This document shows, one piece after another, positions 14,732-25,126 of a stretch of DNA of 64,000 bases. The position numbers and the translations under genes were made by a program. The notes beneath the pieces were generated by a model. That model was not told the origin of the DNA and made no database searches. It saw only the letters and a program-made list of their open reading frames with translations. Source of the DNA: Dehalococcoidia bacterium. Lineage in GTDB: Bacteria; Chloroflexota; Dehalococcoidia; Lucifugimonadales; G958296245. Where the stretch lies: positions 3,156,347 to 3,220,346 of the forward strand of contig CBDHEI010000002.1 in NCBI GenBank assembly GCA_965262055.1, given 5' to 3'. The first letter of the stretch is position 1, and every line of letters begins with the position of its first letter.

Positions 14732-14776
14732 CTTCTGGCTACCTCATTCATTCCTGCTAGTACGTCCAAACGTGGT

Positions 14777-14908
14777 GGAGGAATCCTTCCAGACCTTCCT
14801 TCAGATCCCTTCCTGGACAGGAAGGGTAGAGATTTTGTATGTGAGGGATACCCTCAGACTCCCGGCAAAGGGGCTCCGCCCCTCTGCACACGCCGTATTT
14901 TAGCAGCC
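14777..14908 (-). repeat. copy A of a ~130-145 nt hairpin-rich intercistronic repeat (between ctaC and ctaD)
   Basis: The core gtgagggataccctcagactcccggcaaaggggctccgcccctctgcaca is near-identical to 22132-22180 and 24331-24380. It contains three local hairpins. Confidence 0.8.
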
Positions 14909-14933
14909 TACTAAGATTCGGGCCGCGGCCCGT

Positions 14934-20270: not shown

Positions 20271-22046
20271 TCAGCGGCCTCTGAGCCGGGCGGTCTCTTC
20301 GTGGTCGATGGCCAGGCGTCTGTCTACACGCTCTACCCCGACGTCATAGAGGTCTCTGGCTGCCTGCGCTGAAATGAACCCCTGGCTGACGTCGTCCAAC
20401 ACCCTGTTGACCTCGCGCTCGGGGGTGGGGCCAAAGCCTCCGCCGCCCGGGGACTCGATCAGCACCTGGTCCCCCGCCTCGACGACGCAGTTGGCAAACT
20501 TGGCGGCGCTCACCGTGCCGTAGACTTCGGAGAAGGTCCTGAACCTGTCGTCGCCCTTCTTCTTGACGAGCACAGCCGCGTTGCCCCCGGACCCTCCACC
20601 GAACAGCCCCCAAGGGTTGACGCTCACCCGCTCAAAGACCGCGCTGACGGTGATTTTGGCAGGTTCTACAACCTCCAGGACGCGCCGGATCCCGAGACCG
20701 CCACGGTACCGGCCCGGCCCCGCAGAGTCCTGGACGAGCTCGTAGGAGATGGTGCGCCACGGGTAACGGGAGTCGAACACCTCAACGGGTGTGTTGCGGC
20801 AGTTGCCATTGGGTACCACAACAGCGTTGTTGCCGTCCCGGCTGGCGCTTCCGCCCCAGCCGCAGCCCTCGAAGTTGTAGACCACGTAGTACTCTCCGGT
20901 CTCCGGGTGCTCGCCGCCGAACAGGAAGTTGCAGGAGGACCCTCCCTCTGCGGCGGCCACCCGGTCGGGCACCGCCTGGCTGAGGGCGCCTAACACTATG
21001 TCGACGATCCTGGGGTGGGTCTCTGTATTGCCGCCGACCGATGGGCCAGGGTGCTGGACGTTTACCACGCTGCCCGGCGGGGCGATGATCTTGATGGGGC
21101 GGTAGGCGCCCGAGTTGTGCGGAATCTCCTTGTCGGTGGCGTGGAAGATGCCGTTGTAGGTGGCTGAAGCCGTGACCCCGTAGGTGCAGTTGATGATGCC
21201 CTGGGCTTGGGCATCCGAGGCGCTGTAGTCCGCTATGAGCTCGTCTCCCCGTACGACGAGGTTGAGGCGTATCCAGGTCGGGTCGTTGGTTACGCCGTCG
21301 TCCTCTACGCAGTCCTCGAAGTAGTAGTCGCCGTTGGGGATGCGGCGTATCTCCTCCCGCATCCAGCGTTCGGCATGGTCCATGAGCTCCTCGTTGGCCT
21401 GGTTGACGAAGTCGACGCCATACCTGTCCAGCAAGTCTTTCAGGCGCTCCTCGGCAACGTGGAGCGACCCGATCATGGCATGGAAGTCGCCCCAGGTATG
21501 GGAAGGCGTGCGGTGGTTGGTGAGGATCACCTTCCAGACATCTTTGGCATACTCGCCCCGGCGCATGATTTTGACCAGCGGAAGGCGCAGTCCCTCCTGG
21601 TAGACCTCGGTGGCGGTGGCGGCGAACGATCCCGGCGCCATGCCTCCGATCTCGGCGACGTGTCCGATGTTCGCAACGAAGCCGAAGATCTCTCCTTCGT
21701 GGTAGACGGCCTTGATCACGGCGTGCTCCGGCATGTGGCAGCCACCGCGGTACGGGTCGTTGTGAATAACGACGTCGCCCGGCTCGAAGTTCTCCAGCCC
21801 GTACTCCTCGATGGCCCACTTGATGGTGTAGAGGATTGCCCCGAGCTGGGCTGGGCAGAACTCCGCCTGCGCGATCATGTCGCCGTTGCGGTTGAAGATC
21901 ACGCACGAGAAGTCGAGGCCCTCGTTGAAGATGGTCGAGTAGGAGGTCTTCATCATGGCGATACCCATCTCGCGGCAGATGTTGACCAGCTTGTTGTGGA
22001 GTACGCTCAGCGTGACTTGGTCTATGGCGGGTCCGTCGTGCGCGAT
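20271..22046 (-). CDS. hyuB: hydantoinase B / oxoprolinase family protein (HyuB-like); N-terminus extended to a non-canonical ATC start
   Basis: The ORF track starts at 21968 (MGIAMMKTSYSTIFNEGLDFSCVIF). The same frame stays open upstream and encodes the family-typical AHDGPAIDQVTLSVLHNKLVNICRE. AGGAGG lies 6 nt before an ATC at 22046-22044. No ATG, GTG or TTG is available in frame. Confidence 0.7.
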   Translation of the reverse strand: MAHDGPAIDQVTLSVLHNKLVNICREMGIAMMKTSYSTIFNEGLDFSCVIFNRNGDMIAQAEFCPAQLGAILYTIKWAIEEYGLENFEPGDVVIHNDPYRGGCHMPEHAVIKAVYHEGEIFGFVANIGHVAEIGGMAPGSFAATATEVYQEGLRLPLVKIMRRGEYAKDVWKVILTNHRTPSHTWGDFHAMIGSLHVAEERLKDLLDRYGVDFVNQANEELMDHAERWMREEIRRIPNGDYYFEDCVEDDGVTNDPTWIRLNLVVRGDELIADYSASDAQAQGIINCTYGVTASATYNGIFHATDKEIPHNSGAYRPIKIIAPPGSVVNVQHPGPSVGGNTETHPRIVDIVLGALSQAVPDRVAAAEGGSSCNFLFGGEHPETGEYYVVYNFEGCGWGGSASRDGNNAVVVPNGNCRNTPVEVFDSRYPWRTISYELVQDSAGPGRYRGGLGIRRVLEVVEPAKITVSAVFERVSVNPWGLFGGGSGGNAAVLVKKKGDDRFRTFSEVYGTVSAAKFANCVVEAGDQVLIESPGGGGFGPTPEREVNRVLDDVSQGFISAQAARDLYDVGVERVDRRLAIDHEETARLRGR

Positions 22047-22057
22047 GTCTTGCCTCC

Positions 22058-22200
22058 TACCAGGCTGCGGAAGAACACTCCCAGACCTTCCTTCGGGCGC
22101 TCCCCTTTCAGGAAGATAGAAAGAGATTATATCTGAGGGACACCCTCAGACTCCCGGCAAAGGGGCTCTGCCCCTCTGCACTCCCTGTTCTTCAGTAGCC
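22058..22200 (-). repeat. copy B of the hairpin-rich intercistronic repeat (between hyuA and hyuB)
   Basis: ctgagggacaccctcagactcccggcaaaggggctctgcccctctgcac plus shared flanks. The ends form an imperfect inverted repeat (GCTGCGGAAGAACA / TGTTCTTCAGTAGC). Confidence 0.8.
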
Positions 22201-22203
22201 CTC

Positions 22204-24237
22204 CTAGTCTATGATTACTATTCCGCGGTCGGTGACGGTGAGCCGCCTCTCAGCCGGTAGGGCGACGGTCGAGTCGGCGTCGTCGATCACGGCCGGCCCC
22301 TGGATGACGCTGCCCGGCGCAAGCTCGTGCCTGAAGTATACGGGACAGTCCCGGGCGCCTTCCTGGCCCAGGTGTACAGGGCGTAACGCGGGGGTCGCTC
22401 CCTTTCCAGGGGCGCCGCGCCACAGGGGCAGGCGCACCTTCGGGACCGCTCCTATGACGCTGACGTTGAAGTGGATGAGCTCAATTACTTCGCCGGGCAT
22501 CTCGTAGCCGTAGAAGCCCTGGTGCTGGCGATGAAAGCGGCCGAAGACGTCATGGATGGCGGCTTTGGTGATGCGCCCCGGAGGCACCGACACGTCCTGC
22601 TCGTAGTTCTGGCCCATGTAGCGCATGCTGATGGACCGCTGTACGAGCGGCTCGCCGTCGAAGCCCTCAGAGGCAAGGTCCTCAAGCGCGGACATGGTGA
22701 GGGACTCGAAGCGCTCGTCGATTCGGTCTACGTCCAGGGCGTTGGAGCGGTACGCGTGTGTCCACGAGCGGTCGACCCGGAGGTCGGCCACCAGGGTCCC
22801 GAAAGCGGATGCGAGGCCGGCGTTGGGCGGTATGATCACGCGCCCGATGCCGACCGCGTCGGCCAAGGCGACGGCGTGAAGCGGCCCGGCTCCTCCCATG
22901 GCTACCAGATCGAGGTCCCTGGGGTCGATACCGCGCTCCACCGTCACTAGCCTTATGGCGTCGGCCATGTTCTCGTTGGCAAGCCGCACGATAGACAGCG
23001 CGACTTCCTCAACCCCAGTACCCAGTCTCTCGGCCACGCGGCCCAGGGCCTTGACCGCCTTGTCGTGGTCCAGCTTCATGCGGCCGCCCAGGAAGTAGTC
23101 GGGATTGAGCCAGCCGAGCACGAGGTTTGCGTCGGTGACCGTGGCGTCTGTGCCCCCAGCGCCGTAGCAGGCCGGGCCAGGCTCAGCGCCCGCGCTCTGC
23201 GGGCCGACCTTGAGGAAGCCGCCTTTGTCGATCCAGGCGATGGAGCCGCCGCCCGCCCCTATGGTGGTCACGTCGATGAAGGGGGTAGCGACCGGGAGTC
23301 CCCACTCGACCTGGTACTCGGTCGTGAAGCCGTACTCTCCGTCGACAACAAGTCCGACGTCCGTGCTGGTTCCGCCCATGTCCAGCGTTACCACACTGCG
23401 GCTGTCGACCAGATCTCCGAAGTAGCGTCCGGCGATGACTCCACCGGCGAGACCTGACAGGAGAAGCTGAACGGGATATTCACGGGCGGAAGCGGCGACC
23501 ATCTGGCCACCGTTGGACTTCATCAGCTGAAGCGGCACCTTCAGGCCCCGTTCCTTGAGACCCGCGTCGACATCGCCCGCAAAGCCGGCCACAAGGTGCT
23601 TGACGTAGGCGTCGGCCAGGGTAGTGGTGCCACGCTCGTACTCTCTCCACACGGGGGCGACGCGGTGGGAGAGCGACACGGGCAGGTGCGGGAACTCGTC
23701 CCGGAGGAATTGGCCTAGCCTCTGTTCGTGCTCGTGATGGGCATAGCTGAACAGGAGGTTGACGGCTAGGGCAATGGGGCCCTGCGTTTCGGCCACGCGG
23801 ATACGAACGACGGAGGCGATGCGCGCGAGCTCGGCGTCCGCGAGCGGGGCCAGGACACTCCCGTCTTTGGATATGCGCTCGTTTACCCCGATGCAGTCCC
23901 GGCGCTGGGCGAAGGGGGCGGGTTTGATCCAGGAGAGGTCGTAGTGGTGGCGACGGTTTATGCGCTGGATGAAGGGGACATCTTCGAACCCCTTCGTGGT
24001 CAGGTAGAGCACCCTCGCGCCCGACCTCTGGTGGAGGGCGTTGATGGCTATGGTTGTCCCGAGGACGAGGTAGGAGATGCCTTCCGGGCCTATGCCCGAG
24101 GCCTCCAACGCGTCGAATACGCCCTCATGGGGGACTCGCGGCGTCGATGGCCGCTTGGCGACCAGTATCTGGTCACCATCGTGGTCGATGGCCACCAGGT
24201 CGGTGAAGGTGCCTCCCGTGTCGATTCCCACACGCAT
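22204..24237 (-). CDS. hyuA: hydantoinase A / oxoprolinase family protein (HyuA-like, ATP-dependent)
   Basis: MRVGIDTGGTFTDLVAIDHDG... is the actin-like ATPase N-terminus. ORF 22204..24282 was trimmed to the ATG at 24237 because the 15 upstream codons fall inside repeat copy C. Confidence 0.85.
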   Translation of the reverse strand: MRVGIDTGGTFTDLVAIDHDGDQILVAKRPSTPRVPHEGVFDALEASGIGPEGISYLVLGTTIAINALHQRSGARVLYLTTKGFEDVPFIQRINRRHHYDLSWIKPAPFAQRRDCIGVNERISKDGSVLAPLADAELARIASVVRIRVAETQGPIALAVNLLFSYAHHEHEQRLGQFLRDEFPHLPVSLSHRVAPVWREYERGTTTLADAYVKHLVAGFAGDVDAGLKERGLKVPLQLMKSNGGQMVAASAREYPVQLLLSGLAGGVIAGRYFGDLVDSRSVVTLDMGGTSTDVGLVVDGEYGFTTEYQVEWGLPVATPFIDVTTIGAGGGSIAWIDKGGFLKVGPQSAGAEPGPACYGAGGTDATVTDANLVLGWLNPDYFLGGRMKLDHDKAVKALGRVAERLGTGVEEVALSIVRLANENMADAIRLVTVERGIDPRDLDLVAMGGAGPLHAVALADAVGIGRVIIPPNAGLASAFGTLVADLRVDRSWTHAYRSNALDVDRIDERFESLTMSALEDLASEGFDGEPLVQRSISMRYMGQNYEQDVSVPPGRITKAAIHDVFGRFHRQHQGFYGYEMPGEVIELIHFNVSVIGAVPKVRLPLWRGAPGKGATPALRPVHLGQEGARDCPVYFRHELAPGSVIQGPAVIDDADSTVALPAERRLTVTDRGIVIID

Positions 24238-24255
24238 GACATGACCGCCTAGACC

Positions 24256-24398
24256 CACCAGGCTGAGGAAGAACTCTTCCACATCTTCTTCTGGGCTCTT
24301 CCCTGTTCCCAGGGAAGAGAGGAATTATATCTGAGGGACACCCTCAGACTCCCGGCAAAGAGGCTTCGCCCCTCTGCACACCCCGTTTTTCAGCAGCA
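24256..24398 (-). repeat. copy C of the hairpin-rich intercistronic repeat (between the P-loop-like gene and hyuA)
   Basis: ctgagggacaccctcagactcccggcaaagaggcttcgcccctctgcac, plus a perfect 10-bp hairpin CTCTTCCCTG-ttcc-CAGGGAAGAG (24296-24319). Confidence 0.8.
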
Positions 24399-24400
24399 CC

Positions 24401-25126
24401 TTAAGTTTGGCTGCGGCACTTGTGCCGCTCGCGCCTTTCGGTGTCGTCGGACGAGAGTAACGGCTGGATCTTACCGGCGAACTCTGCCAGCGTTTCTTCC
24501 ACCGTGGCGGAGGTGGTGTCCAGAGAGAAGCGGTTAGGGATGGTTGACCGCTCATACTCCTCTCGGAACCTGTTCAGGACGTGCTCAACGTCGGCTTCCA
24601 GGACGACCTGCCGGGGATGCGGGTCTGCCTTCATCCGGCTGCGTATCGTGTCTGGAGATGCCTCCATGAGCACGAGGACGAAGTCGGGCGCTGCCTCCAG
24701 TAGGGCCCTCTCGACAGTCTTCTTGACGATGCTGCGGGCGCCGGGCTGGCCATCGGCCCCGTAGTAGAAGTAGAGCGGGCCGTAGACTGAGTCCTCGATG
24801 TGCATTCCGACGGCCAGGTAGTCCGAGTAGAAGCCCTGCTCCTCCTCGTGGCCCTTCCTGAACGCGCCGGGCTGTATGTGGTAGTAGAGGCTGTGGCGCT
24901 GCATCTGCTCCTTGACCTTCGGCGCCAGGGCGAGAAGGCCTTCCTGCTCATCCTCGGCCATGAAGCTGTCGGTGTCGATGGGCCAGTGGCCGGTGACGTT
25001 GGGAATCTTCCAGTGGTCGTGGAAGAGGCCGAAGTCGGCGCCCATCTGCTCGGCGCCCCAGCGGTATATCTCCTTGGCGAGGGTCGTAGTGCCGACGTAC
25101 TCGCATCCGACGAGCAGTATCCTCAT
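24401..25126 (-). CDS. P-loop NTPase-like protein with degenerate Walker A
   Basis: MRILLVGCEYVGTTTLAKEIY has GxxxxGTT in place of GxxxxGK[ST]. The ATG at 25126 overlaps the upstream stop as ATGA. Confidence 0.5.
   Translation of the reverse strand: MRILLVGCEYVGTTTLAKEIYRWGAEQMGADFGLFHDHWKIPNVTGHWPIDTDSFMAEDEQEGLLALAPKVKEQMQRHSLYYHIQPGAFRKGHEEEQGFYSDYLAVGMHIEDSVYGPLYFYYGADGQPGARSIVKKTVERALLEAAPDFVLVLMEASPDTIRSRMKADPHPRQVVLEADVEHVLNRFREEYERSTIPNRFSLDTTSATVEETLAEFAGKIQPLLSSDDTERRERHKCRSQT

Follow-up and report, generated by a model that had tools for sequence, protein, structure and literature searches.

A CTAG-duplicating repeat family in a Dehalococcoidia genome, probably of MITE type, and its copy between hyuA and hyuB

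Introduction

MITEs derived from IS5-type elements are small and non-coding, possess terminal inverted repeats and occur in many dispersed copies, as does the repeat family described here; MITEPsy1/ISPsy2 of Pseudomonas syringae is an example of an IS5-family-derived MITE (PMC3189936). For IS5, the duplicated target has the form Py-T-A-Pu, with CTAG as the commonest sequence (PMC5493358). Such a 4-bp duplication is likewise common to the IS5-derived MITEs and the present family. In contrast to them, no insertion sequence with matching ends was found for our family (the best resident IS5-type elements agree at 9 of 16 positions), and its interior consists of a conserved double hairpin instead of remnants of a known insertion sequence.

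ERIC and Correia/NEMIS elements, which duplicate TA, resemble the present family in their length of about 125-155 bp, their bounding inverted repeats and their conservation across genera. They are located inside transcription units, are co-transcribed, can form a long stem in the mRNA and have orientation-dependent effects (PMC10969869). Our family differs from them in duplicating 4 bp (CTAG) and not TA, as seen in the co-variation of bases 1 and 4 of the flanks and in empty sites that read CTAT and ATAG. It has no sequence similarity to them and occurs in a different phylum (Chloroflexota, class Dehalococcoidia). Among structured RNAs, the Clostridiales-2 RNA (Rfam RF02937) displays a weak local likeness that covers hairpin 1 together with two short motifs; membership in that family was rejected, because copy B scores 21.6 bits against a gathering cut-off of 58.6 bits and four consensus-like copies remain unmatched.

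The literature searched contains no description of MITEs in Dehalococcoidia. The family treated here, of which three copies (A, B and C) lie in the window, a stretch of 64,000 nucleotides from a Dehalococcoidia genome, is an undescribed one of an ordinary element kind (MITE) and not a dedicated regulatory RNA. For copy B, located between hyuA and hyuB, we put at roughly 0.9 the probability that it is an old copy of a MITE family, i.e., of a non-autonomous DNA transposon that inserts at, and duplicates, CTAG-like tetranucleotides.

Layout of the hyuA-hyuB junction

The minus strand is the sense strand of both hyuA and hyuB, and the junction reads ...ATAGA-CTAG-GAGGGCTACTGAAGAAC...GTTCTTCCGCAGCCTG-GTAG-GAGGCAAGAC-ATC... 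in that direction. Its parts are as follows, in window coordinates:

22204-24282, minus strand: hyuA, the upstream cistron, 692 aa
22204-22207, minus strand: 5' target-site duplicate CTAG of copy B; TAG at 22206-22204 is the hyuA stop codon; CTAG-like flanks are found family-wide
22187-22203, minus strand: 5' terminal inverted repeat GAGGGCTACTGAAGAAC (family consensus CAGGCTGCTGAAAAAC)
22157-22179, minus strand: hairpin 1, GCAGAGGGGC-AGA-GCCCCTTTGC, its stem of 10 bp including one fixed G·U, almost invariant family-wide
22132-22150, minus strand: hairpin 2, TCTGAGGG-TGT-CCCTCAGA, of all segments the best conserved (2.1% non-consensus in the Dehalococcoidia host genome)
22116-22131, minus strand: A/T-rich linker TATAATCTCTTTCTAT
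22087-22115, minus strand: hairpin 3 (CTTCC...GGAAG), different in sequence among subfamilies, constant in its hairpin fold
22061-22076, minus strand: 3' terminal inverted repeat GTTCTTCCGCAGCCTG
22057-22060, minus strand: 3' target-site duplicate GTAG, identical to the 5' CTAG at 3 of 4 positions and overlapping the hyuB Shine-Dalgarno sequence
22053-22058, minus strand: Shine-Dalgarno sequence AGGAGG of hyuB, 6 nt ahead of the probable ATC start (22044-22046)
20271-22046, minus strand: hyuB, whose conserved N-terminus needs a start near 22046

The body of copy B comprises 143 bp including terminal inverted repeats of 16-17 bp, below the limit of about 300 bp for a bacterial MITE, and agrees with the family consensus at 84% identity. 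It contains no ORF of at least 80 aa, the hyuB reading frame runs into a stop inside it, and neither a consensus promoter nor a consensus terminator was found on either of its strands. The first-pass annotation had described two arms at its ends, GCTGCGGAAGAACA at 22063-22076 and TGTTCTTCAGTAGC at 22186-22199. Both arms exist and, once folded, pair at 12 of 14 positions; the latter is placed correctly, but the former lies at 22064-22077, one base off. The inverted repeat itself is real but reaches further out, to 22061 and 22203 (arms 22061-22076 and 22187-22203).

The same annotation had copy B filling the hyuA-hyuB spacer, which agrees with the hyuA TAG at 22204-22206, AGGAGG at 22053-22058 and the probable ATC at 22044-22046. 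Its placement of the element end about 12 nt upstream of AGGAGG was mistaken, as the 3' duplicate GTAG overlaps this motif. ATG, GTG and TTG are absent from hyuB before 21968, and the conserved N-terminus starts well upstream of that position. With a start at the ATC, the N-terminus is as long as that of an 83%-identical homologue that begins with ATG (MTTRDSIDQVTL).

Copies, consensus and distribution of the family

A BLAST search with copy B against its own genome (4.2 Mb) returned 41 scored matches out of 103 candidates, and iterated nhmmer about 109 family matches over both contigs (C1 and C2 below), of which 56-66 are full-length at about 150 nt; 56 copies lie on the plus and 53 on the minus strand. 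By chance, the core 30-mer would occur 0.00 times in the window, so that its repetition is far beyond chance. The unit of about 145 bases is non-coding and dispersed. The other two copies of the window are:

14764-14912, minus strand: copy A
24254-24402, minus strand: copy C

Copy C possesses the same ends as copy B and the 3' end of copy A is degenerate, as had already been noticed.

The family consensus starts with CTAG, CAGGCTGCTGAAAAAC, GGGGTGT, hairpin 1 (GCAGAGGGGC-GGA-GCCCCTTTGC) and CGGGAG, continues with hairpin 2 (TCTGAGGG-TGT-CCCTCAGA), TATAATT... and the variable hairpin 3, and closes with ...GAAGAAGGTCAGGAAGA, GTTCTTCCGCAGCCTG and CTAG. Its ends (CTAG/CAGGCTGC...GCAGCCTG/CTAG) form terminal inverted repeats of 16 bp, complementary at 14 of 16 positions. 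Matches to a consensus-like copy occur in 22 of the 41 genomes of the same order, across many families. An exact 24-mer of hairpin 2 has more than 106 matching stretches in the species-representative collection, all of them in Dehalococcoidia/Chloroflexota MAGs, and the exact core has no match in viral contigs.

Several variants of the element were observed. About ten copies (e.g., at C2:1573931-1574099 and C2:916766-916936) carry a 24-nt insert, GAGCCTGCCCTGAGCCTGCCGAAG, in the loop of hairpin 2. The copies at C1:306804-306957 and C2:1427806-1427959 have identical flanks on different contigs, which we interpret as a recent segmental duplication. In other Dehalococcoidia MAGs (L060:1846-2631 and L070:1107-1615) the core of hairpins 1 and 2 is present without the terminal repeats, in 197-200-bp tandem arrays of 2.5-4 units with 94% matches. 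These arrays were considered as spacer arrays and rejected as such, being duplications of whole units.

Target duplication and empty sites

Flanks were evaluated for 63 anchored copies against 5000 shuffles. Base 4 of the flanking tetranucleotide is identical on both sides in 51 of the 63 copies, compared with a shuffled mean of 32.6 (none of the 5000 shuffles as high), and base 1 in 48, compared with 42.8 expected (39 of 5000 as high). Perfect 4-bp direct repeats flank 28 copies. The two ends carry CTAG in 28 and 30 copies, CTAA in 9 and 11, and CTAT in 3 and 5, respectively.

The joined flanks of 36 copies were searched against two genomes of the same genus and the matches aligned. Six clean empty sites were recovered for other members of the family, each with one tetranucleotide located exactly at the boundaries of the inverted repeats:

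C2:1676641: empty site with one CTAT; filled site CTAT...CTAT
C2:1356835, adjoining a tRNA gene: empty site with one CTAG; filled site CTAG...CTAG
C1:359201: empty site with one CTAG; filled site CTAG...CTAG
C2:708792: empty site with GTAG; filled site CTAG...CTAG
C2:968737: empty site with ATAG; right-hand duplicate of the filled site likewise ATAG, not the usual CTAG
C2:2640449: empty site with one CTAG; filled site CTAA...CCAA

At all six sites the absent DNA begins with CAGG and ends with CCTG. The empty sites reading CTAT and ATAG imply that all four bases derive from the target, and the duplication therefore comprises 4 bp and not TA. The empty-site comparison proposed at the first pass has thus placed the element boundaries at the ends of the inverted repeats, at six sites of other copies. 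Of the two origins suggested there for the inverted repeat, a miniature transposable element or the closing helix of an RNA, the former gains support from the terminal inverted repeats, the co-varying 4-bp flank duplication and the precise empty sites within the genus.

For copy B itself, no orthologous empty site exists in the two same-genus genomes, both of which lack this hyuA; the best match has 40% identity and belongs to other families. In the nearest metagenomic relatives (HyuA 58-66% and HyuB 81-83% identity) the element is absent and the junctions measure -14 and +60 nt; their HyuB N-termini equal in length the one obtained from the ATC start. The closest of them (HyuA 66%, HyuB 83%) shows a normal short junction and is too distant for defining exact ends. 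The flanks of copy B differ at one base (CTAG and GTAG).

Other repeats were met at some of the compared sites. Two stop-codon junctions that hold the MITE in our genome (L222 and L234 in the same-genus genome G001) carry a different hairpin repeat there; its units resemble TCCCTTCCCCC..GGGGGAAGG, and as many as three of them stand in tandem. Such junctions look like hot spots for repeats of several families. At C2:1236107-1236249, compared with L215, the end of the upstream ORF resembles the 5' end of the MITE (GCGGGCTACTGA), and the same sequence recurs at the corresponding "empty" site in the sister genome; it may have been left by an older insertion. Near position 2188500 of C2, a MITE flank holds another short repeat with at least 25 matching places in a second sister genome (G002).

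Insertion at stop codons and the history of copy B

CTAG is three-fold under-represented in the genome, with 4852 sites compared with 14146 expected; 54% of the sites lie inside genes and 10% at called stop codons. In 15 of 43 anchored copies the duplicate is the stop codon of the neighbouring gene, the exact location of copies on stop codons being a result of the CTAG ends. The family provides an example of a CTAG-targeting element that invades tight operons without damaging them, as the duplicate restores the upstream stop and the downstream ribosome-binding site.

For copy B we propose that an IS5-type DDE transposase, acting in trans on the MITE, would have inserted it into a CTAG in which TAG was the stop codon of hyuA and which reached into the Shine-Dalgarno sequence of hyuB (C-TAG-GAGG). 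Duplication of this target would have left the hyuA stop codon on one side and an intact hyuB Shine-Dalgarno sequence on the other, and with both restored the insertion would be tolerated. Copy B would now be a passenger between hyuA and hyuB, presumably co-transcribed with them, in the sole orientation that appears to be tolerated inside operons.

It had been suggested that the position of copy B is suited to the control of hyuB translation. Copy B does abut the Shine-Dalgarno sequence, but the order of element, duplicate, Shine-Dalgarno sequence and start recurs at several other copies (e.g., CCTG/CTAA/GGAG...ATG), and is likewise expected from mere insertion at a junction of stop codon and Shine-Dalgarno sequence. 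The hyuA stop and the hyuB start are now 147 nt apart, with a predicted structured RNA between them. Because of this distance and the non-canonical ATC, an effect of copy B on hyuB translation is possible, and nothing in its sequence would mark copy B as special among the copies.

Substitution pattern in the helices

Four helices were scored in 96 distinct full copies aligned to the family profile. In an RNA with a single reading sense, G·U would be expected to be tolerated and A·C not. The departures from Watson-Crick pairing in the terminal stem comprise 89 cases of G·U and 90 of A·C, and those in hairpin 1, apart from its fixed G·U, 19 G·U and 18 A·C. Compensatory changes in the terminal stem amount to 16 of about 1490 cells (about 1%), and its consensus carries two fixed mismatches. 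Hairpins 1 and 2 show no covariation because they are almost invariant.

Singleton mutations strike the ends and the hairpins at similar rates (0.58-1.19 per column), an even spread that fits neutral decay after insertion. Hairpins 1 and 2 are better conserved than the ends when subfamilies or families are compared, which we take to indicate that the active source copies, and not the individual insertions, are constrained. Despite its different sequences among subfamilies, hairpin 3 still folds (median z -3.2), which suggests that the formation of a hairpin is a family trait, at the level of either DNA or RNA.

Orientation within operons

Between co-directional genes of the host genome, 34 copies are in sense and 8 in antisense orientation. 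The ratio is 21 to 1 at junctions with gaps of up to 150 nt and 15 to 0 at tight junctions, where both gaps are at most 60 nt; in other genomes 17 sense and 5 antisense copies were counted. As the target CTAG is palindromic, the orientation bias must arise after insertion. The direction of replication was considered as its cause and is unlikely on the indirect grounds that the strands are balanced and GC skew delimits no clear replichores; the gene-strand bias is weak. The sense strand contains 33% G and 24% C, so that antisense transcripts would be C-rich, and its fold exceeds that of the antisense strand in stability by 13 kcal/mol. We infer, as the reason for a selection against the antisense orientation, that antisense copies would be polar inside operons, either by Rho loading or by occlusion of the downstream ribosome site.

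The orientation data likewise bear on the view that the element arrived as a MITE by transposition and that its G-rich sense RNA with three hairpins is now useful in operons, for instance by protecting the 3' end of the upstream mRNA or as a processing site, while polar antisense copies account for the orientation rule. The sense excess, in our genome and in others, would fit this view, as would its origin after insertion, the composition and greater stability of the sense strand, the persistence of hairpin 3 under different sequences, and the effects of ERIC and Correia elements on the mRNAs with which they are co-transcribed (PMC10969869). Against it stand the equal numbers of G·U and A·C departures at the ends and in hairpin 1, the singleton mutations that strike hairpins about as often as ends, and the lack of a consensus promoter or terminator on both strands of copy B. 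Furthermore, selection against harmful antisense copies explains the bias equally well and makes a benefit of the sense orientation unnecessary. We therefore consider a function acquired in this way unlikely.

The conservation of hairpins 1 and 2 together with the 15 to 0 orientation could reflect an added role at the RNA level. We give little credence to the wider idea that the family, spread by transposition, modifies the expression of operons according to its orientation, be it a Dehalococcoidia-wide stabiliser or processing module or an element that is polar in antisense. The orientation rule at tight junctions offers a simple system for studying the orientation-dependent polarity of a co-transcribed repeat.

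The terminal repeat as a closing RNA stem

Copy B could alternatively be a dedicated structured cis-regulatory RNA, in which the terminal repeat closes a four-way junction that controls the translation of hyuB. The single-sequence fold of copy B does close the ends around three internal hairpins (z = -2.96), and the element abuts the hyuB Shine-Dalgarno sequence. However, the same element recurs in about 100 contexts that are unrelated to one another, convergent and divergent gene pairs among them, and this family distribution largely refutes such a function.

The closing helix of a multi-branched RNA, which the first-pass annotation had offered as its second explanation, lacks support in several further respects. 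RNAalifold, one of the programs proposed there, predicts for eight copies the three hairpins and not the closing stem (covariation term -1.04 kcal/mol). The few compensatory cells and the two fixed mismatches of the terminal stem provide no compensatory signal, and its G·U departures do not exceed those to A·C. An Rfam search with copy B and four consensus-like copies gave nothing at threshold, the best match of copy B being the one to RF02937 given above. We accordingly regard a dedicated cis-regulatory RNA as very improbable. For annotation, the blocks of about 145 bp in Dehalococcoidia operons are better entered as copies of a MITE than as candidate riboswitches or small RNAs.

Mobility class and resident transposases

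The family is hairpin-rich and intergenic, and its core also occurs without terminal repeats in the tandem arrays of other MAGs, as might be expected of REP/BIME elements moved by RAYT or of IS200/IS605-type palindromic elements; these classes have neither a target duplication nor long terminal inverted repeats, both of which are present here together with clean empty sites, and an assignment to them is hardly tenable.

A MITE with a 4-bp CTAG-like duplication is IS5-like, and an IS5-type enzyme would be the plausible candidate for the transposase that moves the family. No autonomous partner with the same ends was found in this genome (up to 3-4 mismatches) or in about 1.2 Mb of related loci, neither of which contains another pair of such ends 0.4-4 kb apart. 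Patterns of the terminal repeats used in search of a parent insertion sequence matched noise only. Two resident IS5-type elements have CTAG-like target duplications: one of 1.2 kb with the ends GGAACCTCTGAACAAC, and one of 855 bp with the ends GAGGGTGTTTGCAAAG, 16 copies and a split transposase frame. The MITE ends agree with either of them at 9 of 16 terminal positions in register, a likeness that is suggestive at best.

Two family copies split by 1.75 kb were considered as parents and rejected, since they represent nested insertions of the IS1380 type with unrelated interiors. In both of these (C1:170882-172782, L248; C2:2288743-2290599, L249) a TTAA in the A/T-rich linker was hit, and the inserts are two different IS1380-type elements of 1.7 kb with PF13701 transposases of 454 and 441 aa, respectively. 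The host genome is rich in insertion sequences, with at least 150 matches to DDE_Tnp_1, among them about 55 copies of a 455-aa type and about 70 of a 441-aa type, together with the 855-bp and 1.2-kb elements named above.
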